Assembly: GCA_963845185.1 (NCBI GenBank)
Contig: CAWJRG010000005.1
Location: 192,001 to 256,000, forward strand
Length of the DNA: 64,000 nucleotides
Direction: 5' to 3'
Source: an uncultured bacterium
GTDB taxonomy: Bacteria; Oederibacteriota; PGYV01; CAWJRG01
Positions 6,798 to 59,534 of this stretch are shown piece after piece. Within the stretch, counting starts at the first letter, position 1; the number at the start of each line of letters is the position of its first letter. Under the pieces are notes generated by a model. The model did no database searches and had not been told where the DNA came from. It worked only from the letters and a program-made list of their open reading frames with translations. A program made the translations under genes and the position numbers.

Positions 6798-7013
6798 TAG
6801 ATAGCGTTTATTTTGCCCAGCCAAAGGCGCAGGCAAAATCCACAGGACTGCATGCCGTAAGTTTTTGTTTCACAAAAACAACGGTCTGCAGTATTACGCT
6901 ATCTTAGTACCCGCTCAAGTCACGGGCTTTAGCCAGTCAAATAATCCAGTGGATTATTTGACTGGTAGTTTCCATAAGTCATCATATAAAAACTACCCAG
7001 ACAAGCGGTACTA
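6798..7013 (-). repeat. Two-hairpin dispersed element, copy 1 (longest; nested palindromes in both arms)
   Basis: + strand agatagcgtttattttgcc...ggcaaaat...attacgctatct then tagtacccgctcaagtc...gacaagcggtacta; matches copies at 12619, 40169, 51636, 59438. Confidence 0.85.
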
Positions 7014-8777
7014 TATTGCTTCTTTTAGTTTTTTAAGCTCACTCGAAATCTCAGCCGGCATCCTGTTGCCGAACTGCCCGAAATATTTTTCGATTTCCTG
7101 TGTTTCCTGTTTCCACTCATCCGGCTTTATCTCGTATAGTTTCTTCCATTTTTCTTCTGTGTAATCAAGGCCGGATAGATCCATATCCTTGTAATCCGGC
7201 ACCAGACCTATAGGCGTTTCATTTGCCTTTACTCTGTTGTTTTCCCTGTCCAGTATCCATTTCAAAACCCTGATATTGTCGCCGAATCCCGGCCACAGAA
7301 ACTTGCCGTTTTCATCGGTCCTGAACCAGTTTGCACTGTATATCCTCGGCGGGTTTTTGATTTTTTTGCCCATTGCGAGCCAGTGACCGAAATAATCGCC
7401 CATATTATATCCGCAGAAAGGCAGCATTGCCATTGGGTCCCTGCGTATGACGCCCAACTGCCCGGCTGACGCGGCAGTTGTCTCTGAACCGCTTCGCGCC
7501 GCGCTGAATACGCCGTTTTGCCACGAGGTAGACTCCACAATCAAGGGGATTGCTTTTGTCCTTTTACCGCCGAATATCATTGCGGAAATAGGCACGCCTT
7601 TAGGGTTGTCGAATTCCTTTGAAAGGCTCGGGCAGTTATATGCCGCCACAGTGAAGCGCGAGTTCGGGTGCGCTGCTTTTCCCTCGCTGCCCGGCTCCCA
7701 TTTTTTTCCCTGCCAGTCAATCAGGTTTGCCGGCCTTTCGCCGTCAAGCCCTTCCCACCATGTTTCATTCGTATCCGGGCTGTAAGCCGTGTTTGTGTAA
7801 AGCGTTGGATAAAATCTTTTTGTTTTTAGAGTCTTCATCATGTTCGGGTTTGTCTTCATGGAAGTGCCCGGTGCGACTCCAAAATAACCTGTTTCAGGGT
7901 TCACGGCCCACAGCCTGCCGTCCGGCCCTATGTTCAGCCATGCTATGTCGTCGCCTATGGTCCAAACTTTATATCCCGGAAGAGCTGATTGCAGCATGGC
8001 AAAATTCGTCTTTCCGCATGCGGACGGAAATGCGGCTGCAACATAAGTTACTTTTCCCTGTGGGTCCTCCACGCCTATTACTGCCATGTGCTCGGCAAGC
8101 CATCCCTCGTGAAATCCCTGCCATGATGCTATGCGCAAAGAAAAACATTTTTTGCCGAGCAGGGCGTTGCCGCCATAGCCCGAGCCAATGCTCTGGACAA
8201 GGTTTTCATCCAGAAAATGCATTATAAACCTTTTATTAGGGTCAAAATCTCCTACCGAATGCAGGCCTTTTACAAAATCCGTCGAGCTGCCTATTTTTTT
8301 AATAACTTTTTTGCCCATGCGCGCCATTATCCTGATGCTCACTGCCACGTATGAAACATCGGTAAGCTGCACGCATGCTTTGGCATAAGGCGAGTCCGGG
8401 TGTCCCATCATGTAAGGCAGCACGTACATTGTCCTGTCCTTCATGCAGCCGTCAAACAATCCGCGCATCCTATGTTTTGCTTCGGCCGGGCTCATCCAGT
8501 TGTTGTTTGGGCCGGCTGTTTCCTTGTCGTCATGGCATACAAAAGTCAGGTGCTCTGTCCTTGCTACATCGGTCGGATGGCTCTTATGGTAATATGAATT
8601 CGGCCAATTTTTCTGGTTTAATTCCCTGAATATTGGCGTGCCTTCTATTTTTTCCTCTTTAATCCCTATTTCAACCAGTTTGTGCGCTTCTTTTTCAGAG
8701 CCGTCGCACCAGTGTATTTTTTTCGGCTTTGTCAAAGCTGCCTGTTCTTCAACCCATTTCTCAAGTGGTGTAGCCAT
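7011..8777 (-). CDS. pckG: Phosphoenolpyruvate carboxykinase (GTP)
   Basis: DVART, GSGYGGNALLGKKCFSLR, AFPSACGKTN, GDDIAW, HPNSRF, RRDPMAMLPFCGYNM motifs. Confidence 0.97.
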   Translation of the reverse strand: MATPLEKWVEEQAALTKPKKIHWCDGSEKEAHKLVEIGIKEEKIEGTPIFRELNQKNWPNSYYHKSHPTDVARTEHLTFVCHDDKETAGPNNNWMSPAEAKHRMRGLFDGCMKDRTMYVLPYMMGHPDSPYAKACVQLTDVSYVAVSIRIMARMGKKVIKKIGSSTDFVKGLHSVGDFDPNKRFIMHFLDENLVQSIGSGYGGNALLGKKCFSLRIASWQGFHEGWLAEHMAVIGVEDPQGKVTYVAAAFPSACGKTNFAMLQSALPGYKVWTIGDDIAWLNIGPDGRLWAVNPETGYFGVAPGTSMKTNPNMMKTLKTKRFYPTLYTNTAYSPDTNETWWEGLDGERPANLIDWQGKKWEPGSEGKAAHPNSRFTVAAYNCPSLSKEFDNPKGVPISAMIFGGKRTKAIPLIVESTSWQNGVFSAARSGSETTAASAGQLGVIRRDPMAMLPFCGYNMGDYFGHWLAMGKKIKNPPRIYSANWFRTDENGKFLWPGFGDNIRVLKWILDRENNRVKANETPIGLVPDYKDMDLSGLDYTEEKWKKLYEIKPDEWKQETQEIEKYFGQFGNRMPAEISSELKKLKEAI

Positions 8778-8915
8778 GGTTTTGCTCCTTTTTATAAGAT
8801 ATCTTGTTGTATCTTGCGTAATTATTTATTATTGGGATAGAAAAATACCAAAAAATATTGATAAAGTCAATCTAAAAGGCTTTACTGAAAACGAGTTTTT
8901 CAGAAGGACGAATAA

Positions 8916-9329
8916 TTACTTTTTACCCATCTTTTCCTTGAGAAATTTCCCCATTTTTACGTCTATGTTTTGAATGTGGTCGATCAGCCACCTGTATAAT
9001 TCTTTCTCGGTTTCTATTACTACATGCAAATAGTTTTCTGTCGAATTAATATCGGCCTTTAATTTCTGCACTTTTTTCTTGAATTCTTCGTGTTTGGCCT
9101 TATGTTCTTCAAAACCCGGATAATAATAATCCAGCATGTACCTCTGTTCCGTGGAAAAATGAATATCAGAATACTGATCCAGAAAACCTATTACCTGGCC
9201 TATTTTTTCCTTGCTCTTTGCTTCAGCCATCGAGTCCAGGAGGTCATTTAAGACGCCTATAAACTGTTTGTGCTGGTTGTCAATCTCTTCTATGCCTATT
9301 GAAATATCCTCGGTCCATTGCCTCTTCAT
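8916..9329 (-). CDS. Single-domain bacteriohemerythrin
   Basis: W..DISIGIEEIDNQH, HFSTEQ, YPGFEEHKAKH, WLIDHIQNID di-iron ligand pattern. Confidence 0.9.
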   Translation of the reverse strand: MKRQWTEDISIGIEEIDNQHKQFIGVLNDLLDSMAEAKSKEKIGQVIGFLDQYSDIHFSTEQRYMLDYYYPGFEEHKAKHEEFKKKVQKLKADINSTENYLHVVIETEKELYRWLIDHIQNIDVKMGKFLKEKMGKK

Positions 9330-9351
9330 AATTGCACCTCGTAAAAAAACT

Positions 9352-9453
9352 GTTTAATGTTAAAAGTTGGATGTTTAAAGCTTAAGCTTTTCAACCTTCA
9401 ACTGCCGTATTGCCCTATTAAGGGTAGAGTTCAGAGCTTACAGTTTAGAACTC
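9352..9453. repeat. Degenerate 7-nt tandem repeats forming inverted arms
   Basis: tttaatg-ttaaaag-ttggatg-tttaaag ... ttcaacc-ttcaact, then agagttc-agagctt-acagttt-agaactc. Confidence 0.55.
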
Positions 9454-9456
9454 ATT

Positions 9457-9876
9457 TTACACATCAATTATAATCTTTGTCTCATAATAGCCTTTATTTT
9501 TCTTTAACGCGAGGCTGTTATAAGTCACGCTTTTTAATTCCTCGATTATATAGTCCCCTGTCTTTTTATCAGGGTTTATATGCATGACAGCAGACAGCGT
9601 CATGTTTTTCAATGAAAAATTTTTTACAATTGCCGATTTTACGTATTTTTTCTTCACAAAAATATTGTAAAGTATTTCATTTAAAAAGTCATGCAGCAGT
9701 TCTTCGGCAGAATCGCCTTTGAACCGGACATTGCGCCGGATTTCATGCCCACTGCTTTTTTGCAGGCACAACCCTATTATCGCGCGGACCGCAAGATTAA
9801 AAACGCCCCGCAGGCTCTTTGCCCTGATTTCAACTCCTATGTCAGCTGTGTGGTTGAGTATTTTAATATTTCTCAT
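9457..9876 (-). CDS. Archease (RtcB activator family)
   Basis: N-terminal HTADIGVEI, ELKSVTY, C-terminal IIIDV; TGATG overlap with upstream gene. Confidence 0.88.
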   Translation of the reverse strand: MRNIKILNHTADIGVEIRAKSLRGVFNLAVRAIIGLCLQKSSGHEIRRNVRFKGDSAEELLHDFLNEILYNIFVKKKYVKSAIVKNFSLKNMTLSAVMHINPDKKTGDYIIEELKSVTYNSLALKKNKGYYETKIIIDV

Positions 9877-12128: not shown

Positions 12129-12317
12129 TATTATATTCCTTCATGCGTGTGGCAGAAAATTTTTGCAAAAATATTCCAATATAAAATTTACAATTATATA
12201 TAAATTATATCCCGAATTTGTTTTTTTATCCACAAAATATATTTTTAGGATTCCCCTTTTTGTTGACTCGCTGCCAAAACCTTAATTAATAGGTTATCTT
12301 TACCCAAAATGCTTGTG

Positions 12318-12605
12318 TTATTTTGGCTTTAAAATTTTGCTAAAGAGTTCTTTGATACCGCGCAGGCAAATGCCTTTTCCTGAATATTCCTTTATTTTTT
12401 TGCAAAGTTCAATATGCTGTGGCGTATAAACCCTGGTCCGTCCTACTCGCAAAGGTTTGACAAGGTTTTTCCTTTCCCAGTTCCTTAATGTCTGCTGGTG
12501 CACGTTAAGCAACTTTGCCACATCATTTATTGTGAATAACGCCCGGCTGTCTTTATCTTCAGGCGTATTTTCTTCCAAAACTATAGCTGTTTTAATTTTA
12601 TCCAT
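12318..12605 (-). CDS. Short HspR-like MerR-family HTH regulator (paralogue 1)
   Basis: LFTINDVAKLLNVHQQTLRNWERKNLVKPLRVGRTRVY; start MDKI after SD at 12613-12618. Confidence 0.88.
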   Translation of the reverse strand: MDKIKTAIVLEENTPEDKDSRALFTINDVAKLLNVHQQTLRNWERKNLVKPLRVGRTRVYTPQHIELCKKIKEYSGKGICLRGIKELFSKILKPK

Positions 12606-12618
12606 GTCCTTTTCTCCT

Positions 12619-12707
12619 GAACGAAAGTTTATTTTATAAACCGAAGGGTGAAGCAAAATATTACTTTTGCTTGCACCCGGTCAAGTCCCCAGCTGGGGAC
12701 AGGCGGT
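12619..12707 (-). repeat. Two-hairpin dispersed element, degenerate copy
   Basis: aaagtttatttt...gcaaaatattactttt followed by acccggtcaagtcccc-agct-ggggacaggcggt. Confidence 0.7.
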
Positions 12708-12721
12708 TTCTTATGTCAAAT

Positions 12722-27750: not shown

Positions 27751-29622
27751 ATGACGGAAACCTGGCAGGAGGCTGGCATGCAGTGGTTCCCGGTTTTAGT
27801 TATTATACACTATACTGTATTTTTGAGTGAAATTTTCCTAATCATTTCAATATTATATTTAAACCGAGCAAGTGTTCTTAATCGCGTTGCAGTATTCCTG
27901 ATCGCCTGTTTTGCTTTATGGTCTTTAGGTGAGGTATTTTTATCCAATCCAAACACTCCTCAGAAAGTAGCCGAATGGGTTAGCAAAATTTATTCAATAG
28001 GATGGCTGTTTTTTTCTTCCTTTTCAATACTTTTTGCTCTGCTATTTATTGGCAAAACTGCAATATTAAATTCAAAAATATTTTCTATAGTAATACTTTT
28101 TTTTCCAATCTTTTTTTATGTGGTATTCTGGACTGGTAATTTGCAATATCCGCTTGAAAAAAACTCATTTGGCTGGGCAGTAAAGTGGAAATATAATATT
28201 TTTACATTTTCTTTTTATTTTTACTATATATTATCTATCATAACATGCATTTGGCTTTATCTGGATAACGCAATAAAATCTGCTAATCCCATCAGAAAAA
28301 GGCTTTCTTTTATAATGGTCTTTACAATGTCTGCCTCCCTTTTATGTGGAACATATATGCAGATAATCCTTTCAAAAACAGATAATTTTTCACTAATGAT
28401 TGCTTCTATCACCGACATTTCTGTAGTTTTCTGGATATTTGGGCTTTTCTACTCGATATCAAGGTACCGTTTTATGTCGCTGACTCCCGCAACTACAACT
28501 GAAAATATAATCGATAATATGAGTGAAGCACTTATTATACTTGATGAGTTTTTTGTCGTTACTTTTTTCAACAATGCTGCGCTTAAGTTGCTGGGATGCG
28601 TTGAAAACGACCTTAAAAACAAACCGTTTGTAGCGCTTTTTGCCGATTCCAGCATTTCAAATTATTGGCTAAAAACAAACATCACGAAACACGTGCTAAA
28701 AGGCTACGAAACATTCTTGTCAAAAAAAGATGACAGTAAAATACCTGTCCTGCTTTCTTCCTCAGTTATATTCGAACAAGACGATATAGTTGGTGTAATC
28801 TGCATAGTGAGCGATATGACCCTGCAGAAACAAGCCGAAAAAGAATTAAAAAAAAGTTTTGACAGGCTGATTGAGCTGGACAGGATGAAAGAAAGTTTCC
28901 TGTCAATGGTTTCCCATGAATTAAGGACGCCTTTGACGTCAATCAAAGGTTTTCTTTCGTTCTTGCTCAGCGGCGTCGCCGGACAGATTACGCCCAGGCA
29001 AAAAGAATTTTTGGAAATAATGGACAGTAATTCCGACAGATTGTTGACAATGACAGGAAAACTTCTTGATGTTTCAAAAATGACTTCCGGAAGTTTTTCC
29101 ATTCAAAAAGCAGATTACGATATCATCAAGGTAATGGAATCAAGCGTAAAAGACATATCTTCGATTATCGAAAAGAAAAAGATTACCTTACTTACAGAAA
29201 CGCCCATTAAAAACCCGACCATGAAAATTGACGAATACCGGATTTCCCAGGCAATAATAAATCTTTTAAACAACGCCATTAAGTTTTCCAGTGAAGGAAC
29301 GAAAATAGTAATCCGGATGGACGAATATTCAGAGGAAAAAATCAAACTTCCTGCCGAGACAAAAGCTTGTTTGCCGGCCGGCAGGAAATATGTGGTTATA
29401 TCCGTAGCTGACGAAGGTGTAGGCTTAACGCCGGAGCAAAAGCAAAAAGTTTTCGGAAGGTTTTACCAGGCAGAAGATATAAACATAAGATCCACTCAGG
29501 GATCCGGCCTGGGACTTTATATAACAAAAAATATCGTGGAACTTCATGAAGGATTTATATGGGTTGAATCAGAAGGGGTTAAAAAAGGCACAACTTTTTA
29601 TATCCTGTTACCTGTGGCGTGA
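27751..29622 (+). CDS. Sensor histidine kinase (7TM N-terminus, PAS, HisKA, HATPase)
   Basis: About 7 TM helices; VSHELRTPLTSI; NLLNNAIKF; ADEGVG; GSGLGL. Confidence 0.95.
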   Translation: MTETWQEAGMQWFPVLVIIHYTVFLSEIFLIISILYLNRASVLNRVAVFLIACFALWSLGEVFLSNPNTPQKVAEWVSKIYSIGWLFFSSFSILFALLFIGKTAILNSKIFSIVILFFPIFFYVVFWTGNLQYPLEKNSFGWAVKWKYNIFTFSFYFYYILSIITCIWLYLDNAIKSANPIRKRLSFIMVFTMSASLLCGTYMQIILSKTDNFSLMIASITDISVVFWIFGLFYSISRYRFMSLTPATTTENIIDNMSEALIILDEFFVVTFFNNAALKLLGCVENDLKNKPFVALFADSSISNYWLKTNITKHVLKGYETFLSKKDDSKIPVLLSSSVIFEQDDIVGVICIVSDMTLQKQAEKELKKSFDRLIELDRMKESFLSMVSHELRTPLTSIKGFLSFLLSGVAGQITPRQKEFLEIMDSNSDRLLTMTGKLLDVSKMTSGSFSIQKADYDIIKVMESSVKDISSIIEKKKITLLTETPIKNPTMKIDEYRISQAIINLLNNAIKFSSEGTKIVIRMDEYSEEKIKLPAETKACLPAGRKYVVISVADEGVGLTPEQKQKVFGRFYQAEDINIRSTQGSGLGLYITKNIVELHEGFIWVESEGVKKGTTFYILLPVA

Positions 29623-29797
29623 ATAATTTTTTTTATTGTTTCAGCTATGCATTATTGTTTCCAGTAATCAAATATTAGTATTCCCGTCAACAGACCTTAT
29701 GAATTTTCATTTCGGATAAATTTATGTTTCTTAATCTTAATCTGCTGGCAATCTCCCGGTAATTAACCAATTCGAATTCGAAAGATTTTCTGTAATA

Positions 29798-30824
29798 TTA
29801 ATTGCTTTTATGCTGGTTTAGCATTTTTATGGCTTCCTGCGCTTTACTGTATCCAAGTTTGACAGCCATATTCAAATCCTCCAGGGCTCCGCTTTTATAG
29901 CCGAGCATTGCTTTTATTATCCCTCGGTTATTATAAGCTTCTGCGTATTTTGGGTTTAATTCGATTGCTTTGCCGTAATCATTAATCGCATCGGCGTTGC
30001 GGCCAAGCCTGCCTTCGGCAATTGCCAGATTGCAGTAAGCCTCCGCGTATACCGGATTAAACTCAATAGCCTTGTTGAAATCATTAATCGCGCCCGAGAA
30101 ATCCCCGCGATTGCTTTTAGCTATTCCCCTGTTGCAGTATGCTTCGGAAAATTTCGGATTCAGTTTTATGGCCATATTATAATCCTCTATTTGCGCGTTA
30201 TAATTGCCCATATTGCCTTCGGCAACTCCCCTGTTGCAGTATGCTTGGGAAAATTTTGGTTCCAATTTTATGGCCTTGTTGTAATCCTCAATTTCTTCGG
30301 TAAATTTATCCATGCTACCTTCGGCAAAACCCCGGTTGTAATAAATTTTTGCATCTTTAGGATTAAACTCGATCGCTAAATTATAATCATCTATTGCGTC
30401 GGCATAATTGCCTATGCCGGAACTTGCTATCCCCCCGGTTGGAATAAGCCTCGCCATAATCCGGTTTCAATGCAATAGCCTTGTCATAATCCTTAATCGC
30501 ATCTGTATAATTACCAAGTCTTCTCTTGGTATTGCCGCGGCTATAATATGCCTCTGCAAATTCCGGGTTCAGCGCAATGGCTTTGCTGTAGTCCTTAATA
30601 GCATCTTTAATACGGCCAAGGTCGTTCTCGGCAGCCCCGCGCATATAATAGGCCTCGGCATATTGCGGGTTTAGTTCAATGGCCTGGTCGTAATCTTCTA
30701 TGGCATCGGCTTGACCGCCTAATTGGGCCTTTGAAATCCCGCTTTTCAAATATTCTTCCGCTGACGTCGGATAAAGATTAAAAACAATGCCTGTACATAA
30801 CACAAAAAAAATGAATTTTTTCAT
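29798..30824 (-). CDS. Secreted TPR-repeat protein, split by a +1 frameshift in C6 (30431-30436)
   Basis: Signal peptide; 34-aa repeats AIEDYDQAIELNPQYAEAYY; removing one base gives NRGIASSGIGNY. Confidence 0.85.
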
Positions 30825-30860
30825 TTGACCCTCATTTTTTAACTATCTGTATGAACCAAC

Positions 30861-31661
30861 CTACTGAATCTTCAGTAAAAACTTTATTGCCCTTTCATAT
30901 TCTTCAATATCAATATCAGTATTCCTGCATGGACCTTCTGGCCTGCTATTGGGTATGGCGATTATTGTTATGCCATGCGGCGAGTCTGTCATGCCTGAAA
31001 TAAGGTCACGCTCGCAGGCAACGCCTATTATCGCGTCAGGCATGAATTTTTTTACCGTTTGCCTTGCCGACGATCCGCCCGTGGCGGTAAATATTGTGCA
31101 ATTGTATTTACCGGCCAGTTCAAGAGTCTTTTCCCTTGTTTCTTTTTTAAGGCATCTCGGCAGCAGTACCAGGAGTTTTTCGCTTTTAAATTTTGCCTTT
31201 GTAGCATAAATAAGTGCGTTATTGACTTTAATAAATGAATTCCCTATTCTGTCTTTGGATATTTTGAATAAATTGGCTATCGTATACAGAAGCGGCATCA
31301 TACGTTCAACATGCAATCCACTTTTACCGAATAATATAATAAAATTCCTGCCCGTTTCCACCGTAATAACAAGAAGTATCGACCATAGATATAAAAATGC
31401 GAGCAAAATTATTACTGTCCATTTTAGTATTAAATCTGCATAAAAGTTCATGGCGTATATTCTGGGCGAGACAAGATAATACAAGAAAAATATAATTGCA
31501 GTTAAAACCAGTAAAGTCAAAGCGTAGAACCATATAAAAAGCCCTTTGCCCTCTTCTATCTGTTTTTCGTAGTTTGAAAGGTCTCCAACCCATCCTGCCC
31601 ATTCATCGCCAAGATTACGGTCGGTTGTAGGCAGGTTGTTTTTATCATTTTCCTCTTCCAT
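30861..31661 (-). CDS. DUF116 family membrane protein
   Basis: Two TM helices; LLPRCL, ATGGSSAR, AIIGVACERDL, GPCRNT motifs. Confidence 0.75.
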   Translation of the reverse strand: MEEENDKNNLPTTDRNLGDEWAGWVGDLSNYEKQIEEGKGLFIWFYALTLLVLTAIIFFLYYLVSPRIYAMNFYADLILKWTVIILLAFLYLWSILLVITVETGRNFIILFGKSGLHVERMMPLLYTIANLFKISKDRIGNSFIKVNNALIYATKAKFKSEKLLVLLPRCLKKETREKTLELAGKYNCTIFTATGGSSARQTVKKFMPDAIIGVACERDLISGMTDSPHGITIIAIPNSRPEGPCRNTDIDIEEYERAIKFLLKIQ

Positions 31662-31709
31662 TATTCACCTTGTTTTGTGTCCGGTTTATAAATGCGTACT
31701 CCTGCGGCT

Positions 31710-32502
31710 TCATTTAATCATTACCAGCTGCAACATTCTCCCGGTTATTTTACCATCCCTGCGAAAGGAAAAAAACAATTTTTTTGAGTCATATACGCAT
31801 ATCCTGTTTGCATATATATTTCTTCTTTTTAATCCTGCGCTTAAAAGCAGATTTATGTTTGCTTTCCAGAGGTCAAGATATATACGGTTTTTTTTGATTA
31901 TAAAAGCAGCCTTGAATGCCTTGTCCTTTGCCATTTTTCCATAAAGCTCTTTGCCTATTTCATAATGACACGGGCCTATTGCCGGCGATATGCAGGCAAT
32001 TATATCCTGTGGTTTCGTTATATATTTATTTTTTAGTTTGTTAACAACAAGCATAACAATTTTTTTATAAGTACCGCGCCATCCCGCATGCACGGCTGCT
32101 ACAACTTTTTTGACAGGGTCCACAAGGATTATTCCTGCGCAATCCGCGACTTTAACTCCCACTGCCAGTTTCCTTTCCTTTGTTATCAACGCGTCTGCTT
32201 TTGTTTTTATTATTTTTACTTTGTTTTTTTTTGTTACTTCAACTATTTTTTCTTCCGTGAACCTGCACCGGGGCGTAAAGCTCTTCTATATTCAGGGCTT
32301 TTTTAATCCGCTCAAGATTTTTTTTTATATTTTCAGAATTATCGTTTGTGTTGAATCCTGTATTTAAACTGCTGTAATTTCCCCTGCTCACGCCGCCCAA
32401 TCTGGTAGTCATCGCCTCCAGAAATATTTCCGTACCGTTGATTCTCTTATTTTGGAAAAAAACTAAATTATTTTTTTTATTTATCTTGTAATCTTTGTTC
32501 AT
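31710..32502 (-). CDS. pgeF: Peptidoglycan editing factor PgeF/YfiH, split by a +1 frameshift in T6 (32246-32251)
   Basis: TTRLGGVS, QVHG, ADC, AAVHAGWRG, PAIGPCHYE, FFSFRRD; removing one base gives HGRKIVEV...ADALIT. Confidence 0.88.
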
Positions 32503-40154: not shown

Positions 40155-40168
40155 TTCTTTCTCCTTAT

Positions 40169-40265
40169 GATAGCGTTTATTTTGTCAAGCCAAAGGCAAT
40201 GACAAAATATTACGCTATCTTATACCCGCTCAAGTCCCGAGCTTGCGAGGGACAAGTGGTATATA
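40169..40265 (-). repeat. Two-hairpin dispersed element, compact copy overlapping the murG 3' end
   Basis: gatagcgtttattttgtc...gacaaaatattacgctatc then tatacccgctcaagtcc...ggacaagtggtata. Confidence 0.85.
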
Positions 40266-41335
40266 ATGTCCGTTATTTTTTTTGCTCCGTTTCCTTTATA
40301 CATGCTTTTCAATTTTTTTCTTATTAGGTTGTTTTCCTTTTTATCCAGTATTTTCTTCAGGGCTGTCACCACCGTCTCAGGTGTCAAATCCCTGTCTTTT
40401 ATTATCAGCCCAGCCTGCATTTTTTCAAAAACCGCCGCATTCTTTTCCTGGTGGTTATCGGTAGCATAAGGATACGGCACCAGTATTGCCGGGAATTTAA
40501 GCGCGGCTATTTCCGATAAAGTGCTGGCTCCTGCCCGCATTATTCCCGCGTCCGAAGCCGCATACGCCGAATCTACGTCATGTATAAAATCAAATGCCTT
40601 TATTTGTATTTTTTTATGGCCGGCTGCTGCTTTCTTTACTTCCTTCAAATCCGCCTTGCCGCACATCCATAAAATTTGAATGCCTTTGAGTTCTTTTTCC
40701 ATTGCGCCAATTGCCAAAATAAGCGTTTCGTTTATTTTGTGCGCAGCCCTGCTTCCCGGCATCACCAGTACAGTTTTGTTCGACGGCGACAGTGAAAAGA
40801 CTGCGAGCCCGGCTTTTTTGCTTTTGCCTTTTATGCCAGGTCTCACAGGGTTTCCAACTACAATTGTTTTCTTTCTTGGAAAATATTTAAGCGTTTCTTC
40901 AAAACCTACAGTAATAAAATTCACGAAAACCGAAAGCATTCTGTTTGCTATGCCAGGCACCATGTTCGGCTCGTGTATAAGCGTCCTTTTCTTAAGCAGA
41001 GCCGCCGCAAAAACCACCGGAAAAGACACGAAACCTCCGGTGCCTATCACAAAATCCGGGTTGAATTCCTTCACAATTTTTTTTGCGGCAAATACCGCCT
41101 TTATGTTCAAAAACAGGTTTGTTATATTTTTAAAAAATATTCTCCTGGCAAATGGCCTTGCCGTAACCTCTGCGTATTTGAATCCGTGCTTTAACATGAT
41201 TTCCCTTTCCATGCCATTATCGCTTCCGGCAAAAACAATCTTTGTTTTTTTATTCCTTCTTACCAGTTCTTCTGCTATGGCTATAGCCGGGAATATATGC
41301 CCCCCGGTTCCTCCGCAGGCCAGCATTATTCTCAT
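40220..41335 (-). CDS. murG: Lipid II GlcNAc transferase MurG
   Basis: GGTGGHIFP, GTGGFVS, HEPN, GNPVR, RAGAST, HQEKNA. Confidence 0.97.
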   Translation of the reverse strand: MRIMLACGGTGGHIFPAIAIAEELVRRNKKTKIVFAGSDNGMEREIMLKHGFKYAEVTARPFARRIFFKNITNLFLNIKAVFAAKKIVKEFNPDFVIGTGGFVSFPVVFAAALLKKRTLIHEPNMVPGIANRMLSVFVNFITVGFEETLKYFPRKKTIVVGNPVRPGIKGKSKKAGLAVFSLSPSNKTVLVMPGSRAAHKINETLILAIGAMEKELKGIQILWMCGKADLKEVKKAAAGHKKIQIKAFDFIHDVDSAYAASDAGIMRAGASTLSEIAALKFPAILVPYPYATDNHQEKNAAVFEKMQAGLIIKDRDLTPETVVTALKKILDKKENNLIRKKLKSMYKGNGAKKITDIIYHLSLASSGLERV

Positions 41336-50363: not shown

Positions 50364-51286
50364 AATCCCACCTCAATTTTTTCTGCGGCCCTTAATTTCG
50401 CGCTCCGCGCCCTTGGGTTTTCTGTTATTTCGCTGCCTGACGCGGTCACAGGCTTTTTCGTCAATACTTTCAGTGTTTTCTTGTGACCACAGTTGCACGG
50501 CCCTTTTTTGTCGGTACAGATGCAGTCTCTTGTTTCCGTGCTAAAAAACCTTTTGGCGATACGATCCTCAAGTGAATGAAAACTTATGACAACCATCCTG
50601 CCGCCTGTTACGATAAAACCATGCACTTTATTTAAGCTTTCAGAAAGGGCGTTTAGCTCGTCGTTTACTTCTATCCTTATCGCCTGAAATGTTTTGGTGG
50701 CCGGATTTATTTTTTCCCTGTAATTCTTGCTTTTGCCTATTATTTCAGCCAGTTCCATTGTGCTTTTAACCGGCCTGCTTTTTATTATGGCATCGGTAAT
50801 ACGTTTATAATTTCTTTCCTCGCCGTATTTTAATATTATCCGCTCAAGGTCTGAACGTTTGTAGTTATTAACAACAAAAAATGCGGTAAGTTCTTTGCTT
50901 TTATCCATCCTCATGTCCAGCGGTGCGTCTTTTGAAAAGCTGAACCCGCGTTCTCCTTTATCAAGATGCAGGCTGGATACTCCAAGATCATACAAAACCC
51001 CGCTTATTTCCTTCACATTAAGCCTTGCCAATACTTCATCTATATGCCTGAAATTGGCTTTTACAGCCTTAAAATTATTATAAGCTTTAAGTCGCTCTTC
51101 AGCGTACCCTATGCTTTCAGCGTCGCAATCAATCCCTATAAGTGCGCTGCCACTGCCTATCTTCTGCAGTATGGCTTCGCTGTGGCCTCCCATGCCCAGC
51201 GTCGCGTCCACCCATAATCCTTGCTCTTTCAGTTTTAAAAATTCCATCGCCTCGCCTATAAGTACAGGGGCGTGGATAAATGTCAT
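50360..51286 (-). CDS. rsmH: 16S rRNA m4C1402 methyltransferase
   Basis: HAPVL, DATLGMGGHS, DLGVSS, PLDMRMD, FHSLEDR, NPRARSAKLR. Confidence 0.98.
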   Translation of the reverse strand: MTFIHAPVLIGEAMEFLKLKEQGLWVDATLGMGGHSEAILQKIGSGSALIGIDCDAESIGYAEERLKAYNNFKAVKANFRHIDEVLARLNVKEISGVLYDLGVSSLHLDKGERGFSFSKDAPLDMRMDKSKELTAFFVVNNYKRSDLERIILKYGEERNYKRITDAIIKSRPVKSTMELAEIIGKSKNYREKINPATKTFQAIRIEVNDELNALSESLNKVHGFIVTGGRMVVISFHSLEDRIAKRFFSTETRDCICTDKKGPCNCGHKKTLKVLTKKPVTASGSEITENPRARSAKLRAAEKIEVGF

Positions 51287-51627
51287 AATGTATTTTCAAA
51301 TGCCTTTATTGCGTCGTCTTCGGAACCGTAAAATTCAAATTCTCCCCAATATCCCGCGTAAATAAAAAGGTTTTTTACATAATCGCTTCCGCCTATTATT
51401 TTTATGTCCCCGCCCAGGTTTCTTACCCTTTCCTTCCTCTCATTTAAATACTCAATCCCGCTGACGTTTATGTGAGTTACATTCGAAAAATCCAGCACAA
51501 AAAACAAATTATCCTTTTCTATGAATGACGTTACTATTTCCTTTAAGGCGAGGACATCTTCAATATCGATGTCGCCTTTTAAAATCAGGATTACAACTTT
51601 CTTTGTTGTAGTTAGTGTTACCATCAT
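51283..51627 (-). CDS. STAS domain protein (anti-sigma factor antagonist-like)
   Basis: ILKGDIDI, VLDFSNVTHINVSGI, GGDIKI pattern; ATGA overlap with rsmH. Confidence 0.82.
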   Translation of the reverse strand: MMVTLTTTKKVVILILKGDIDIEDVLALKEIVTSFIEKDNLFFVLDFSNVTHINVSGIEYLNERKERVRNLGGDIKIIGGSDYVKNLFIYAGYWGEFEFYGSEDDAIKAFENTL

Positions 51628-51635: not shown

Positions 51636-51690
51636 TGTTTGTTTGTCCTTTCCTGCCTGCGGAAAGGACAAAATATTACGCAAATATAAC
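51636..51690 (-). repeat. Partial copy of the dispersed hairpin element (arm A only)
   Basis: ttgtcctttcc-tgcctgc-ggaaaggacaaaatattacgc; shares gacaaaatattacgc with the 40169 copy. Confidence 0.65.
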
Positions 51691-53113: not shown

Positions 53114-53150
53114 GTTTTTTGCCTCTTCATTTTGTTTTCTTTTAATTTCC

Positions 53151-53240
53151 GGCTCTTGTTCCTAGTCGCACTTCGTCTCTTAGTTTCTAAGTCTCATGTC
53201 TCTTGGTTTTGAACTTAGAAACCCAGAGACTTAGAGACAT
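53151..53240. repeat. 8-nt tandem repeats in inverted arms
   Basis: gtctctta-gtttctaa-gtctcat-gtctcttg ... cttagaaa-cccagaga-cttagaga. Confidence 0.65.
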
Positions 53241-53242
53241 AT

Positions 53243-55483: not shown

Positions 55484-55547
55484 TTAGCATCCTTTTTTAT
55501 TAATCTTTCCATCCCTTACCCCTTACCACTCCCCCCTTACCTCTCAC

Positions 55548-56678
55548 TCACCATATCCCTCTGATTGGATAACCGCAATAACCGCATTTTCCATCCTTGA
55601 TGTTGTTCTCAAGTATGGTATATCCATAGCGCTTTATTACTATTTTACCACAATGCGGGCAGTATGTGCTCTCATAAATGTTGCCCGGCAGATTTCCGAT
55701 ATAGACATACTGCAACCCCTCTTCTTTTGCGATGTCGTGTGCCCTTGTCAGTGTTGATTCATCGGTCGCAGGCAGGTTTGACAGCAAATACTGCGGGTAA
55801 AACCTTGTAAAAAACAGGGGCGTGTCTTCACCCATGTTTGCCTTTATCCACCTGCTCATTTGCCTTATCTCATCCATGTTGTCGTTCAGGCCGGGCACAA
55901 CAAGGTTTACCAGTTCGGTTAATTTGTTGTTTGCTTTCAAAATTTTCAGCGTTGAAAGAATATCTGAAAGCCTGCAGCCAACTGTTTTCCTGTAAAAACC
56001 GTCGTCAAACCCCTTTAAATCTATTTTAACCACGTCAAGGTACGGCAGCAGTTTTTCAAGCGGCTCTTTGTTTATATACCCGCCTGATATAAAAACATTA
56101 TATATCCCTTTTTCTTTCGCGAGCTTTGCCGTGTCATAAACATATTCATAAAAAATTACCGGCTCAGAATATGTATATGCTATGGATTCGCACTTATAAT
56201 ATTCCGCATTTTCCACCACTTTATCAGGAAGCATAATGTCATAAGCCGCATCTTCCGGATTACACTGCGATAACTGCCAATTCTGGCAGAAATCGCACCT
56301 TAAGTTGCACCCGTTTGTGGCTATTGAAAAAGCCTGAGAGCCTGGCTTTAAGTGGTAAACAGGTTTTTTTTCAATCGGGTCTATTGCTACTGATTTTGGC
56401 AGGCCGTAAACCATGGTATAAAGTTTGTCGCCGGTATTAATCCTGACCCTGCATTTCCCCCTGTACCCTTCGGGCAGGAAACATTCCTTCGGGCACAGGT
56501 CGCACTGCACACCGTTGCATGTAGTATGGTAAAACATCGCTTCTCTTATTGTCTGGCTTTTATCCAAAAAAACTTTTTTGTTAAAAAAAGCAGGGGCTGT
56601 TGTTATAAAAGTCGCGGCTAAGGTAATATTTAAAGTCAGTATGATAAATGCCTTTATTATTGGGATTTTTTCCTTCAT
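55548..56678 (-). CDS. AmmeMemoRadiSam system radical SAM enzyme (AmrS-like) with N-terminal hydrophobic segment
   Basis: CDLCPKEC, DPIEKKP, CNLRCDFCQNW, AYTYSEP, C-terminal CPHC and CGYC; start MKEK overlaps upstream stop. Confidence 0.88.
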   Translation of the reverse strand: MKEKIPIIKAFIILTLNITLAATFITTAPAFFNKKVFLDKSQTIREAMFYHTTCNGVQCDLCPKECFLPEGYRGKCRVRINTGDKLYTMVYGLPKSVAIDPIEKKPVYHLKPGSQAFSIATNGCNLRCDFCQNWQLSQCNPEDAAYDIMLPDKVVENAEYYKCESIAYTYSEPVIFYEYVYDTAKLAKEKGIYNVFISGGYINKEPLEKLLPYLDVVKIDLKGFDDGFYRKTVGCRLSDILSTLKILKANNKLTELVNLVVPGLNDNMDEIRQMSRWIKANMGEDTPLFFTRFYPQYLLSNLPATDESTLTRAHDIAKEEGLQYVYIGNLPGNIYESTYCPHCGKIVIKRYGYTILENNIKDGKCGYCGYPIRGIW

Positions 56679-57322
56679 TTTTTTACCCCTAAAGTTTTTG
56701 CAACCGCTGTGCAAAAAGGCGCTAGACCAATAATCATGCCCGCCATAAAAATACCCCAGTAAAAATGCGACGGGTATTTATTATGCACAACGTCGGGCAC
56801 GCATGTTATAAATGAAATAATAACAATAATCCCTCCTGTTATTTCCATTAGCCATAACCACTTCGTTTGGTAAAACTCCCCGTTTTTGTTAATAAAATAG
56901 ATTAACAGAAGTGCCGCTGTGATAAGGGTAAGTGATACTAAAAGCGGTGCAAGCACCGGCCCAACCCATACGACAGGTATAAAAAACAACACATCCATAG
57001 TAAAAAAATTTGGCGGCCAGTTCAATATTGCTTTAAGGCCGATATAATAAACTACATCCCATATGCCGAATATATAAGCGAAATAAGCGAATTTTTCCAA
57101 TTTTGTCTTGCCTGCGATTATAGCTACGCCGAGAATCATTATTATGGTGGCAAACTCCCTTGACACTTCGGTTGCCAGTATCCTTCCAGCAATGGTTTTC
57201 AAAGGAAAATCAAAGCCTTCCGGATACAATAATCCGCGCAAATAAACCACCACGGCTGCCTCAAGATATCCCATGGCTGCCGCGTACAGGAATACCCAGA
57301 ATAGTATTCTTTTATAATTCAT
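56675..57322 (-). CDS. Hypothetical multi-pass membrane protein
   Basis: About 6 TM helices; AMGYLEAAVVVYLR, REFAT, WDVVYY. Confidence 0.75.
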   Translation of the reverse strand: MNYKRILFWVFLYAAAMGYLEAAVVVYLRGLLYPEGFDFPLKTIAGRILATEVSREFATIIMILGVAIIAGKTKLEKFAYFAYIFGIWDVVYYIGLKAILNWPPNFFTMDVLFFIPVVWVGPVLAPLLVSLTLITAALLLIYFINKNGEFYQTKWLWLMEITGGIIVIISFITCVPDVVHNKYPSHFYWGIFMAGMIIGLAPFCTAVAKTLGVKK

Positions 57323-57387
57323 ATTTCACCAGTCGTCCCGTGAAAAAATATTATCCTTCGCAGTGATTTATTGAGCATACCTAATGG

Positions 57388-57840
57388 CTATTGAAAATAA
57401 AATCTGGCTCCCAGTCCCCATTGCAGTGTAAACCACATGCCTGGCAGGACATTCAAAGACGGCGCAACTTCAAGAAATATATCAATAGGCGCGTCACTAA
57501 AAAGATAGCTCATGCCGAACGGCACCCTTACCCCTAAATCTCCCGAGCTGCCCGACGCTCCTCCGAAAGCACCGATCCCAAAATAAAGCGGCATTGACCC
57601 TTCCCTGAGTTTTATTATTTTAAAATTATGGATAAGGTAGTCGATATGCATGTCAATGTATGAACCAAGCCACCATCCTACGGCGGCGTCTATTGCCGTA
57701 TTTTTCGACTGCCACAGTTTAAAACTTAACCCTGTAGGGTCACCTACTATAACGCCCAATCCAAAATCCCTGTGCCAGGCTAAAGCAGAAGCCGAAAAAG
57801 TAATTGATAAAACGAGCAAAAGCAAAATAACTTTTTTCAT
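57388..57840 (-). CDS. Small outer-membrane beta-barrel protein (DUF3996-like)
   Basis: Signal peptide; FGLGVIVGDPTGLSFK; C-terminal beta-signal GLGARFYF. Confidence 0.75.
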   Translation of the reverse strand: MKKVILLLLVLSITFSASALAWHRDFGLGVIVGDPTGLSFKLWQSKNTAIDAAVGWWLGSYIDMHIDYLIHNFKIIKLREGSMPLYFGIGAFGGASGSSGDLGVRVPFGMSYLFSDAPIDIFLEVAPSLNVLPGMWFTLQWGLGARFYFQ

Positions 57841-57927
57841 ATTTTCCTCCTCGCAGGTATTTTACGCAAATTTTACTGCCTATTCCAGTTTTGCCTTGAT
57901 ATACATATATTTATACCCGCATTATAT

Positions 57928-57955
57928 TTGTAATTAATGTCAATTATGCTATAAT
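57928..57955 (+). promoter_or_regulatory. Extended -10 promoter for the epimerase gene
   Basis: TTGTAA-N16-TATAAT with TG at 57947-57948. Confidence 0.45.
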
Positions 57956-58016
57956 ATATATTGTACTGTCAATATAAAAAACCAAAGACAAAAGAAATGC
58001 TCAAGGAGCAAAAGAA

Positions 58017-58916
58017 ATGGAAATATACATAACAGGCGGGACTGGCTTTATAGGCAGCTATGTAGTAAAAGAACTATGCGGCAATAAGAATAATATTACT
58101 GTACTCGCCCGCAATCCCAATAAAGTTCCGGCCCTGGCAAACCTGCCTAATGTCACTGTTAAAAAAGCAAATATGCTCGATTACAAGGCGGTTGAAAAAT
58201 CAATAAACAATATTGACGCGCTTGTGCATATCGCGCTGTCCTGGGGCGATACCGGGCCTGATATGATAAAAAACGAAACTTTATCTTCAGTCAAAATCAT
58301 AGACATTGCCCTTAAAAAAGGCGCAAAAAAAATCATCTTCACGTCCTCCACTGCTGCCCAGGGTTCAATAAAAAAAGACACTGATGAAACCGCAAAAATG
58401 CGTCCCAATGATTTTTACGGGGCGACAAAAGGAGCGGTTGAACTTTTCATGGATGCGTATTCAAGTTATTACCCCAATATTTGCCTGAATGTAATAAGGC
58501 CCGGTTATACTTTCGGCAACCCTGCTGTAGAGGGCGGTTCCATCGAGTCCGACGTCCGTTTTAAAACAATCTGCTCAAACGCGAAGTTTGGAAGGCCGAT
58601 AGAAGTTACAAAAACAGACGGCACGCAATTTATATGGGCAGGAGACCTTGCCGTGATATACAAAAAAGTCCTGAATAGCCGCTTAAAAAACCAGGTCTTT
58701 TACGGCTTGGGAAGTAAATTCATAACATGGGAACAGGTTGCGCAATGGGCTGTTGAAACCGCAAAAGGCAAAAGCAGGATTAAAGTTATCGACAGGGGCT
58801 GGTCAAAAAATCCGCCTTTTTACAGAGTGGATAAAATCAGGAAATATTTTGGTTTGTCTTTTAACCCGGCTGAAAAAATCAAAAAACACATCGAGTATCT
58901 CCTGGATATTTCGTAA
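58017..58916 (+). CDS. NAD-dependent epimerase/dehydratase (extended SDR)
   Basis: ITGGTGFIG, FTSS, YGATK. Confidence 0.92.
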   Translation: MEIYITGGTGFIGSYVVKELCGNKNNITVLARNPNKVPALANLPNVTVKKANMLDYKAVEKSINNIDALVHIALSWGDTGPDMIKNETLSSVKIIDIALKKGAKKIIFTSSTAAQGSIKKDTDETAKMRPNDFYGATKGAVELFMDAYSSYYPNICLNVIRPGYTFGNPAVEGGSIESDVRFKTICSNAKFGRPIEVTKTDGTQFIWAGDLAVIYKKVLNSRLKNQVFYGLGSKFITWEQVAQWAVETAKGKSRIKVIDRGWSKNPPFYRVDKIRKYFGLSFNPAEKIKKHIEYLLDIS

Positions 58917-58924
58917 TTTGGCGT

Positions 58925-59113
58925 CCTGTGGAACCCCGCCGACGGGAGTCGGCGGCTCCTTTAGAAACCACCGGAGGTTATCATAAGTTCCCTCAGGAAA
59001 GGCTATAGTCCCGAGCGAAGTCGAGCGGATATAATTCATCCCCCAACCGGAGTTGGGGGATTTCTTTCTGGATTATTTATCCCCTTTAATAAAGGGGACA
59101 CAGGGGATTTGCC
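58925..59113. repeat. Cluster of short REP-like palindromes between convergent genes
   Basis: ccgccgac-ggga-gtcggcgg; tcccgagcgaagtcgagcgga; atcccccaac-cgga-gttgggggat; tcccctttaataaagggga. Confidence 0.7.
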
Positions 59114-59194
59114 TTTATGGTTTTTGTTTCAAATTTCTAAATCTAGCTCCACATCCCACGCCGCAAATCGCACTTATTTTACCTCACGCTTCTT

Positions 59195-59425
59195 TTACTC
59201 TGACGCTATCACCTTTGTTACTTCCGGAATTTCTTCTTTTAAACGCGCTTCTACCCCGCCGCTCAGTGTCATTATTGCCATCGGGCACCCGTGGCACGCG
59301 CCTGTAAGCTTGACTTTTACTTCTCCTGTTTTTTCGTCAACATCTATAAGCTCCAAATCCCCGCCATCTGCCTGCAGGAACGGCCTTATTTCATTTAAAA
59401 CTTTTTCGACTTTTTCCTTCAACAT
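59195..59425 (-). CDS. NifU-C/Nfu domain Fe-S carrier protein
   Basis: [23 protein letters not shown]. Confidence 0.93.
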
Positions 59426-59437
59426 ATAAGCCTCCTT

Positions 59438-59534
59438 AGTAAGCGTTATTTTGCCAAACCGGTTACACCGCAGGCAAAATACTACTCTTACTTGTCCCCA
59501 CTCAAGTCCTTTGCCTGCAAAGGACGAGCGGGAC
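59438..59534 (-). repeat. Two-hairpin dispersed element, copy with compensatory changes
   Basis: agtaagcgttattttgcc...ggcaaaatactactcttact then gtccccactcaagtcc...ggacgagcgggac. Confidence 0.82.

Follow-up and report, generated by a model that had tools for sequence, protein, structure and literature searches.

BOX elements of Streptococcus pneumoniae and the BIME/ERIC repeats are intergenic repeats built from modules that form hairpins, are transcribed along with their neighbours, vary in module number and order, and have no transposase of their own; we know of no report that they prefer the 5' edge of a Shine-Dalgarno sequence (SD). Mycobacterial MIRUs sit between operon cistrons in gene orientation, in contact with the adjoining stop and start signals; they have small ORFs through which translation can be coupled, and are not described as conserved two-hairpin folds. 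The closest described elements are Neisseria REP2 (CREN) and the Borrelia plasmid repeats IR-A/IR-B, which, in one review's account of them, form two stem-loops internally, lack inverted repeats at their termini and lie beside a ribosome-binding site immediately upstream of unrelated ORFs (PMC3184786). As that account has it, REP2 brings its own promoter, ribosome-binding site and ATG, is present in about 26 copies and marks genes that are regulated together, and the way in which REP2 and IR-A/IR-B spread is left unexplained there (PMC3184786).

The module described here is about 100 nt long, is dispersed over all large contigs of a 3.5-Mb genome, and is likened to REP2 by description, not by sequence alignment. 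Set beside the review's account, it too lacks terminal inverted repeats, holds two internal stem-loops and lies immediately upstream of ORFs (81/129 copies). It differs from REP2 as portrayed there in copy number (about 150-180 against about 26), in an SD that seems to come from the gene itself and in weak promoter signals, and in genes that share no function, with many copies lying within operons; relatives of its host, moreover, carry terminator-linked copies. On balance, we think it probable that these copies form a dispersed family of a transcribed, structure-constrained and duplicative leader module, with Neisseria REP2 as its nearest counterpart. BOX and BIME/ERIC-type repeats share with it modular hairpins, co-transcription with neighbouring genes and the lack of a transposase, but differ in sequence and fold, again as compared by description. 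MIRUs are likewise inter-cistron repeats oriented with genes, but where they have small ORFs the module has stops in its linker. Integron attC sites are also folded imperfect hairpins placed in one orientation just upstream of the next ORF, whereas the module has two different hairpins, forms no cassette array and is scattered over the contigs, including positions inside atp, pyr and mur operons; this dispersal and the conserved-operon locations argue against an attC or cassette-array identity.

Within the window, by which we mean the whole 64,000-nt stretch analysed, a sequence-only reading had listed five copies, and all five stretches are present on the minus (mRNA) strand. Three are full members and a fourth belongs to the family but is interrupted by two nested repeats, while the fifth, called partial, is an A-like hairpin only, for which that word was generous. 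The composite copy was set against further composite copies, and the boundaries within it were drawn by eye.

40168..40267, minus strand: full copy (hairpin B, linker, hairpin A), covariance model 110.9 bits, between murG and a Mur-ligase gene (murC position)
40155..40167, minus strand: Mur-ligase gene SD with its spacer, immediately 3' of the 40168..40267 copy
59438..59539, minus strand: full copy, covariance model 75.2 bits, preceding a NifU-like gene at 59195..59425 (Pfam NifU)
12620..12714, minus strand: full copy, covariance model 70.8 bits, preceding a MerR-family gene at 12318..12605 (Pfam MerR_1)
6800..7012, minus strand: composite copy preceding a TetR gene, found by the covariance model in fragments only
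6800-6839, minus strand: composite copy, 3' part of hairpin A
about 6840-6891, minus strand: composite copy, nested module E
6892-6932, minus strand: composite copy, rest of A and 3' arm of B
about 6933-6999, minus strand: composite copy, nested two-hairpin module D
7000-7012, minus strand: composite copy, 5' arm of B
51636..51690, minus strand: A-like hairpin only, a doubtful or degenerate member, abutting the SD of a STAS gene (51283..51627) and downstream of mraZ

The downstream genes had been named correctly: Pfam gives TetR, MerR, a Mur ligase (after MurG), STAS and NifU-like. The composite (6798-7013) fills the gap behind a PEPCK gene (stop at 7011; Pfam TetR_N and PEPCK on its two sides), and the nesting of other repeat modules in its hairpin B loop and in the 5' arm of hairpin A is why the covariance model recovers it only in pieces. 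At 51636-51690, between genes with Pfam STAS and MraZ domains, neither the covariance model, even at E<=10, nor nhmmer returned a match. The 40168..40267 copy folds into two hairpins, with the SD beginning 3-4 nt past stem A; the murG ORF (40220..41335) extends across hairpin B as far as a TAA stop in the B-A linker. Gene callers stretch upstream ORFs into the module, murG here being an example. The 12620..12714 copy begins 8 nt past the stop of a 1651-aa ORF, and the three full window copies have 41-47% G+C.

Genome-wide, the covariance model yields at least 148 matches (a lower bound, with 150 candidates scored) and nhmmer 181, 118 of them near full length. Tandem arrays reach 6.6 units in this genome and 3 units in the related genome G014, and units internal to an array have no SD. 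Among 23 other genomes from the same order, 11 carry the module, in copies that keep the unpaired motifs; it was found in 0 of 17 genomes of other orders of the phylum. Median pairwise identity is 0.66 and the nearest-neighbour median 0.86, with a neighbour at identity >=0.95 for only 7 of 111 copies; judged by this divergence, the copies are old. The module is one that has been repeatedly copied to many unrelated loci of the lineage. The scale of the family (about 150-180), the nested modules, the tandem arrays and the terminator-linked copies of relatives are features beyond those that the sequence-only reading had noticed.

What has been kept through this copying is the fold. Hairpin B contains an invariant asymmetric internal loop, CUUGUC opposite GACUUGAGCGG, and hairpin A an invariant AA/A internal loop; a short linker separates the two, which are unlike each other, and their apical parts vary. 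The claim that these asymmetric loops are conserved extends to the copies of relatives. Stem covariation, also claimed earlier, is borne out as well: across 40 copies from this genome, 93.5% of cells are paired and 21 of 30 pairs are changed on both sides, with 0/500 shuffles reaching the observed pairing and slid partners only 31-41% paired. The 31 copies from relatives give 93.4% paired and both-side changes in 22 of 30 pairs, in an alignment fitted to the model and so favouring structure. Among 75 nearest-neighbour copy pairs, the difference is 0.179 in unpaired columns against 0.068 in paired ones, 58 of 61 double changes preserve the base pair, and old copies (median identity 0.66) are still 92% base-paired. 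Part of the compensatory double changes could come from exchange of whole hairpin tops among copies. Over 27 pairs in 111 copies, G-U wobbles number 41 against 70 A-C mismatches, and hence show no sign of selection on the sense RNA; the fold may act on the other strand or in DNA.

The module matches no described RNA family, as had been surmised: Rfam 15 gives 0 matches at gathering score across the 64-kb window, and at E<=1, over four loci with eight copies, nothing overlaps a copy. A group II intron identity was also rejected, the module having no GUGYG 5' end, domains V-VI or reverse transcriptase; a true group II intron with all three is present in the same genome.

Placement is tied to genes. 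Tabulated across the genome, 148 copies are co-oriented with the downstream gene and 18 opposed, and the gene contexts drawn from a crude custom ORF caller, with the module as E, are '>E>' 123, '<E>' 25, '>E<' 9 and '<E<' 9. An SD, a start and an ORF lie behind the intact 3' end in 81 of 129 copies, against 0/165 at the other end and strand and 248/5000 (5%) at random intergenic positions; where at least 150 nt of other intergenic DNA is on offer, 34 of 71 copies still abut an SD. The statement that the element always abuts an SD therefore holds for the window (5/5), not for the genome. Oriented in sense, the module has its 3' end 0-3 nt ahead of the downstream gene's AGGAG, and so becomes the gene's leader or the spacer between two cistrons. 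The 3' flank profile reads W-A-A-G-G-A-G, and the 5' flank profile holds no SD-like or other conserved motif. Many copies lie within operons, housekeeping ones among them; flanking genes include atp, pyr, mur, hydrogenase, efflux and sigma-factor genes, and no common function was found among 39 flanking proteins.

Whether the SD belongs to the gene or to the repeat bears on a reading modelled on REP2, in which the repeat is a portable expression cassette carrying a promoter and SD, perhaps also the start, and fused to genes by duplication of the 5' untranslated region. The likeness to REP2 and the Borrelia IR elements, as the review portrays them (two internal stem-loops, no terminal inverted repeats, immediately upstream of ORFs; PMC3184786), speaks for such a cassette, as does the correlation of junction and SD sequence with subfamily: GGACTC is followed by T[AT]AGGAG in 15 of 19 copies, and GAAATC by AAGGGAGG in 7 of 11 outside the array. 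From these junctions, part of the SD could travel with the module, a pattern that gene-family duplication confounds. In at least 5 of 6 paralogue comparisons, however, the SD and spacer behind a copy align with those of the module-free paralogue, and from such alignments the SD after a copy is most likely the gene's own; one pair, C10:661160, is also readable as an old SD left upstream of the copy. At murG-murC, the SD lies within the murG 3' end in 21 relatives, and in this genome the copy stands between conserved murG C-terminal codons and the SD, so placed that the SD at 40155..40167 is most likely the Mur-ligase gene's own. As to a promoter, the module has two conserved hexamers, TTGA(G/C)C and a TAATAT-like one, and the sigma-70-like match TTGACC-16-AATATT is weak at 9/12, with the proviso that the phylum's own promoter type may differ. 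One scan found none on the sense strand of the 40168 copy, and at 59438..59539 the hexamers upstream of the copy (59557-59591) are better than those inside. Array-internal units lack an SD and the copies of relatives end at terminators, which also count against a cassette. We regard this reading as very unlikely.

Comparison of orthologous loci indicates that the copies are insertions. No covariance-model match occurs at the murG-murC (21 relatives), atpH-atpA (19) or pyrR-pyrB (20) junctions, and these junctions are compact, so the copies there are lineage-specific insertions; the relatives are of the same order, none close, and no clean empty site from a close strain is among them. Conversely, one junction is occupied in genome G001 and empty here. 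Within the genome, the paralogues C1:125887 and C1:1357xx are 96% identical on both sides, and the copy replaces a 16-nt spacer. The alignment ends are, by inspection, not inverted copies of each other, and no target-site duplication appears in the flank profiles, the three orthologous junctions or the two-sided paralogue pair. With neither terminal inverted repeats nor target duplications, we infer transposition from distribution only. Seven multi-copy elements (six insertion-sequence families and the group II intron) have no B- or A-like ends. On these grounds a simple palindrome or MITE is not supported, and the old, diverged copies are unlike an active MITE.

A different mobile origin would be a gene-less derivative of the IS200/IS605 or REP/RAYT type, its hairpins read as single-stranded DNA by a Y1 HUH transposase that inserts beside a fixed short target, here the SD complement. 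As in IS200/IS605 ends, PATEs and REP/RAYT elements, the hairpins are imperfect and their unpaired bases conserved, and no target duplication shows; terminal inverted repeats are lacking, in this genome one end sits beside a recurring short motif, and the excess of A-C over G-U is expected if the complementary strand folds (by pair position 11 vs 3, not significant). The HUH partner that the sequence-only reading proposed looking for did not turn up, however: PF01797 (Y1 HUH, RAYT/TnpA type), searched at E<=0.001, has no match in this genome, whose completeness is rated at 99.4%, yet the family was found in 6 of 14 control genomes, and such a transposase was rejected as the copying enzyme on that basis. 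The module's two hairpins differ from each other, its copies are old and tied in orientation to genes, and the flank in relatives is a terminator A-tract with no SD; we consider this origin highly improbable. REP/RAYT (REPIN) identity in particular fails for want of a RAYT gene and because a short (20-40 nt) GC-rich single palindrome does not describe a module of about 100 nt whose two hairpins differ and whose three full window copies have 41-47% G+C.

In relatives, the module is followed not by W-A-A-G-G-A-G but by an A-tract before terminator-like hairpins. The sister family f10 has the module, then an A-tract, a GC-rich hairpin and a T-run in 13 of 21 copies by strict script and about 20 of 21 by eye; its upstream DNA is mostly non-coding, and for one of these loci synteny extends over 4 genomes from 2 genera. 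By their layout, these copies resemble small-RNA genes. Their position before terminator-like hairpins means that the conserved unit is the folded RNA (or single strand), not the SD link.

These copies bring in a regulatory explanation, in which a single RNA-binding protein would bind the module and set how some 80-100 mRNAs are translated or how stable they are; stand-alone terminator-ended copies and arrays would work in trans, for example as CsrB-like decoys, and copying would be no more than the means of regulon growth. The terminator-ended layout, its synteny and the arrays would suit this explanation, as would the sense orientation at the SD, the fold maintained in old copies, and invariant unpaired motifs and compensated stems that persist across families whose MurC proteins are only 62-69% identical. 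Its targets, however, have no common function, some of them being single cistrons of atp, pyr and mur operons, and orthologous genes in relatives are without the module, so there is no conserved regulon; there is no G-U excess on the sense strand, and the binding protein and stand-alone promoters remain putative. We judge such dedicated control to be unlikely. The earlier alternatives, a cis-acting RNA motif or a mobile palindrome, are thus each partly supported without being separated: a conserved fold, non-random placement and insertion are supported, while a simple palindrome or MITE and a functional regulon are not.

For the leader module that we favour, we suggest that a copy would land at, or survive only at, the 5' edge of a gene's SD, where it could take the place of the old spacer and even of the last codons of the upstream gene. 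Selection would then preserve the fold long after copying; the compact structure would leave the SD single-stranded, and the invariant unpaired bases would be the probable recognition site of a putative conserved trans-acting protein. A bolder version, which we hold to be quite doubtful, gives the FCPU426 (Goldbacteria-like) lineage an undescribed post-transcriptional system acting genome-wide, with the module as its cis half. The two invariant internal loops would be read by a conserved protein, more than 80 mRNAs would carry the module at the SD edge, and stand-alone terminator-ended copies and arrays would serve as trans-acting decoys. To spread, the module would home to A-rich, G-rich signals and settle at their 5' edge, the signals being SDs in one family and terminator A-tracts in another; an RNA intermediate may be involved, since this genome also has an active group II intron reverse transcriptase.

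Small structured repeats tend to be dismissed as gene-end junk. In this case, a family has been placed repeatedly at the single position that gives a gene its leader while the SD-start unit stays intact. The annotation of these genomes should mask the module, given the over-extension of ORFs into it, and the module offers a natural example of a hairpin insulator ahead of ribosome-binding sites. Were the placement targeted, the family would amount to a mobile element with the translation start signal itself as its target; were the fold to bind a protein, the copies would form a large post-transcriptional network of recent assembly, in a phylum from which nothing has been cultured. In either case, the module provides a testable RNA of about 100 nt with defined invariant bases.

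The B+A module, a repeat of about 100 nt made up of hairpin B, a linker and hairpin A, belongs to a large, old and structure-constrained repeat family whose members mostly lie in sense orientation with their 3' end at a Shine-Dalgarno sequence (SD), are lineage-specific, and have neither a HUH partner nor an Rfam family. All five stretches that the sequence-only reading picked out in the window are present where it placed them, on the minus strand, the one that corresponds to the mRNA of the adjacent genes, and the downstream genes are those that it named (TetR, MerR, a Mur ligase after MurG, STAS and NifU-like). Its count of five copies holds in part: three are full members and a fourth is a true composite member, but the stretch at 51636 holds an A-like hairpin only. 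The list gives their scores with R1, a covariance model built from A2, an alignment of 40 copies from the source genome.

Stretches of the B+A family in the window, with R1 results
40168-40267, minus strand, full copy, 110.9 bits
59438-59539, minus strand, full copy, 75.2 bits
12620-12714, minus strand, full copy, 70.8 bits
6798-7013, minus strand, composite copy, found as fragments only
51636-51690, minus strand, A-like hairpin, no match even at E<=10

The composite copy houses two other repeat modules: the loop of hairpin B holds one, and the 5' arm of hairpin A the other. Small hairpin modules (window 6933-6999, here module D, and 6840-6891, as well as many other sites in the genome) nest in B+A copies or adjoin SDs, and module D directly abuts an SD at C9:~934830 (C1 to C11 denote contigs of the source genome). 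At the murC copy, the annotated-length murG ORF takes its final 13 codons from hairpin B (window 40220-40265), the murG frame running through hairpin B to a TAA in the B-A linker, a stretch in which stops can be read in all three frames; the murG of relatives has another short tail at its end, and this one overlaps the murC SD. The 3' part of a 1444-aa ORF (window 59660-62168) recurs with 98% identity at C5:366648-369156 and with 95% at C10:~29188-32048, in what are large paralogous genes.

The source genome (3.50 Mb in 11 contigs, rated 99.4% complete) yielded 181 matches to an nhmmer profile at E<=1e-3, 118 of them near full length, and the covariance model recovers at least 148 copies at E<=0.01, a lower bound because only 150 candidates were scored. 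RNAalifold resolves the module alignment into two hairpins with 30 pairs. The covariation of the stems, proposed from the window alone, is borne out by A2, in which 93.5% of cells are paired and both-sided changes occur at 21 of the 30 pairs; pairing falls to 31-41% when partners are slid by 1-3 columns, and none of 500 shuffles, controls that ignore the relatedness of the copies, reached any of five measures. Individual copies adopt the predicted fold with z-scores of -1.5 to -4.7, and in these folded single copies the SD begins 3-4 nt past stem A. The unpaired bases of both internal loops are near-invariant, and both hairpin tops vary freely. Units also occur in tandem: an array of 6.6 whole B+A units (period 100 nt, 95% matches) lies at C9:916520-917175 (L074:2021-2676, minus strand), its last unit carrying a nested module and having no SD or gene directly after it, and a same-order relative, G014, has a three-unit array at C31:7618-7914.

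Gene contexts, taken from our own crude ORF caller (2721 ORFs), place 123 of the 181 nhmmer matches between co-directional genes in sense orientation and 25 facing the downstream gene from a divergent gap; 9 lie in convergent gaps, 9 run antisense to the genes on either side and 15 are within probably spurious antisense ORFs. We scored adjacency as an SD-like core at most 8 nt away, a start 3-13 nt later and an ORF of at least 40 codons. This arrangement follows 81 of the 129 copies with an intact 3' end, compared with 0 of 165 at the other end and strand of copies and 248 of 5000 random intergenic positions. Orientation and distance to starts, on which the proposed cis role depended, are thus far from random; the claim that the module always abuts an SD, which holds for all five window stretches, extends genome-wide to these 81 copies but not to the other 48, among them inner array units and copies that have another repeat after them. 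Short spacers do not explain the adjacency, since it is also seen in 34 of the 71 copies for which 150 nt or more of further intergenic DNA was available. The profile of the 3' flank is W-A-A-G-G-A-G-G straight after the last stem base, and the 5' flank is AT-rich only. Chance or low complexity as the source of the pattern is ruled out by the covariation and position controls together.

The genes that follow include atp, pyr, cysteine and methionine enzymes, hydrogenase, efflux, sigma factors, NHL-repeat proteins and others, among which no common function was found. Rfam 15 gave no match in the 64-kb window at gathering scores, and none overlapping any copy at E<=1 in four loci holding eight copies, which agrees with the earlier reading, in which no known riboswitch class was recognised. 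Because of this null and the lack of a shared gene function, we reject a riboswitch or known leader. An intrinsic terminator or attenuator is likewise ruled out in this genome, where no T-run follows hairpin A and a GC-rich hairpin comes after only 2 of 129 copies. A shared short reading frame of about 14-40 codons that starts MERIKK comes just after three module copies, at C9:528251, C9:532595 and C9:918542, and after two others (C6:76475 and C10:198788) stands another shared sequence, which contains a hairpin.

Whether the SD belongs to the repeat or to the gene can be approached from the junctions. Since these track subfamilies, with T[AT]AGGAG next in 15 of 19 GGACTC copies and AAGGGAGG next in 7 of the 11 GAAATC copies outside the array, our first idea was that the SD travels with the module. 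Comparisons with paralogues weaken that idea: in at least five of six, the copy-free gene's own SD and spacer align with those behind the copy, and within the GAAATC group several genes seem paralogous to one another. In four of the six pairs homology begins only at the SD, so these are not clean empty sites, and one pair can also be read as an old SD left upstream of the copy. Given the alignment of SD and spacer with those of copy-free paralogues, the SD is probably resident in most cases, with the module set 0-3 nt before AGGAG.

The B+A copies are insertions whose presence is lineage-specific. The source genome is the sole member of its family among the genomes compared, and its junctions were set against those of same-order relatives, in which murG-murC is compact in 21 (MurC 62-69% identical), atpH-atpA in 19 and pyrR-pyrB in 20, the SD often lying within the last codons of the upstream gene; R1 detected no copy at any of these loci at E<=1. 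The murC copy of the source genome sits between conserved murG C-terminal codons and the SD. Within the genome, a paralogue pair that is 96% identical on both sides differs by a copy replacing the 16-nt spacer between stop and SD, and a junction occupied in the relative G001 has an empty orthologue in the source genome. A metagenome scan with an 813-aa protein encoded amid 11 copies returned one distant locus only, at 40% identity, and so no clean empty site from a close strain, in data that may leave out records of the source genome or near ones.

The copies are old and have diverged. Among 111 distinct near-full copies the median pairwise identity is 0.66 and the nearest-neighbour median 0.86, and only 7 have a neighbour at 0.95 identity or above; even so, Watson-Crick pairs fill 92.5% of 2920 stem cells. 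In 75 nearest-neighbour pairs the difference rate is 0.179 in unpaired columns and 0.068 in paired ones, and 61 double changes were counted against about 9 by chance on our own estimate, the pair being kept in 58. Low identity combined with such pairing and compensated double changes argues that the fold is constrained well after copying, and some of the double changes could stem from copies swapping entire hairpin tops. Wobble pairs do not favour sense RNA (G-U 41 and A-C 70 over the 111 copies, about equal in A2, and 11 pair positions to 3 for A-C over G-U, which is not significant), so what folds may instead be the other strand, or DNA.

How the module spreads was approached through the genome's mobile DNA. 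The RAYT/TnpA-like HUH nuclease suggested as a partner was not borne out: PF01797 (Y1 HUH transposases including RAYT) has no match in the source genome, and the same search was positive in 6 of 14 control genomes. A self-comparison of the genome by megablast identified abundant multi-copy elements, six insertion-sequence families (among them IS3/rve-like, two DDE_Tnp_1/DUF772, DDE_Tnp_1_4 and IS110) and a group II intron, none with module-like ends, and we reject an origin from any of these because their ends do not match. The module's own ends are not inverted repeats of each other in the alignment, and no duplicated flank is visible in the flank profiles. The 5' edge of A-rich, G-rich signals is the putative target of placement.

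The group II intron (about 1.9 kb; RVT_1; Rfam RF02005 and RF00029) is present as six near-identical copies and one partial copy, and the IS110-family element (DEDD transposase, 1288 bp) as five.

Coordinates of the two elements in the source genome
C10:383310-385233 (L174), group II intron
C10:831383-833306, group II intron
C9:845005-846928, group II intron
C9:811166-813089, group II intron
C9:699939-701855, group II intron
C11:61537-63458 (L181), group II intron
C1:269248-269920, group II intron, partial
C1:322287-323574, IS110-family
C10:445105-446392, IS110-family
C5:335600-336887, IS110-family
C9:329614-330901, IS110-family
C9:95265-96551, IS110-family

Each intron copy directly follows GGAGG-N5-6-ATGA, inserted one base beyond the start codon; genes split by three copies, read across the intron by eye, would begin MKK and resemble lipoprotein signal peptides, and at one full copy and the partial one a hairpin module stands just upstream of that SD. 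The right end of the IS110-family element adjoins a G-rich repeat in three or four of five copies, resembling a separate GC-rich palindromic repeat whose motif has about 16-23 copies and which is also flanked by several copies of another insertion sequence. A GGGGCGATTCAYGAATCGCCC-type palindrome family of about 8 copies ends a few bases before the SD at C10:~318100-318230, a site paralogous to one holding a B+A module. Among the small hairpin modules that nest in B+A copies or adjoin SDs, the motif of the second hairpin of a two-hairpin module occurs about 70 times, a module with an A-like hairpin in inverted orientation has about 12 copies, and a rarer module was seen twice.

Beyond the source genome, the covariance model, run with stricter filters on assemblies many of which are incomplete, was positive in 11 of the 23 further same-order genomes, with 1-17 copies of the module in each, and in none of the 17 that represent other orders of the phylum. 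An exact-pattern scan of one genome per species gave 29 loci, the credible ones in candidate division FCPU426 MAGs and one other MAG; the rest (Burkholderiaceae, Cupriavidus and others) are in line with our estimate of about 25 matches by chance. Relatives' copies keep the invariant loop motifs and stems, and a model-fitted alignment of 31 has 93.4% of cells paired and double changes at 22 of 30 pairs. In G001, of family f2, two of three copies abut an SD and ATG. In the family f10 (relatives G014, G020, G023 and G019), the module runs directly into an A-tract, then a GC-rich hairpin whose sequence varies and a T-run, this terminator-like hairpin being detected at 13 of 21 copies by a strict perfect-stem script and about 20 of 21 by eye; the script is positive after 2 of 129 copies in the source genome. 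DNA upstream of f10 copies is mostly non-coding, and one terminator-linked locus keeps its synteny across four genomes from two genera, beside a gene that by eye looks RadC-like. From their layout, these terminator-linked copies look like putative stand-alone small-RNA genes.

We found no published description of the B+A module in the literature on FCPU426/Goldbacteria, SD-linked intergenic repeats, REP2 and MITEs, and a term search of PMC7031533 returned no passage on genomic repeats, transposases or intergenic regions. The nearest described elements appear to be the Neisseria REP2 repeats and Borrelia IR elements, which passages of PMC3184786 describe as having two internal stem-loops without terminal inverted repeats and as lying immediately upstream of ORFs with an RBS. 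The B+A module differs from these in copy number, in an SD that appears to be the downstream gene's own, in its location inside operons, in the lack of a common regulation theme, and in having terminator-linked relatives. The module is probably co-transcribed as a leader or inter-cistron spacer, and its invariant loops would form a putative protein site.
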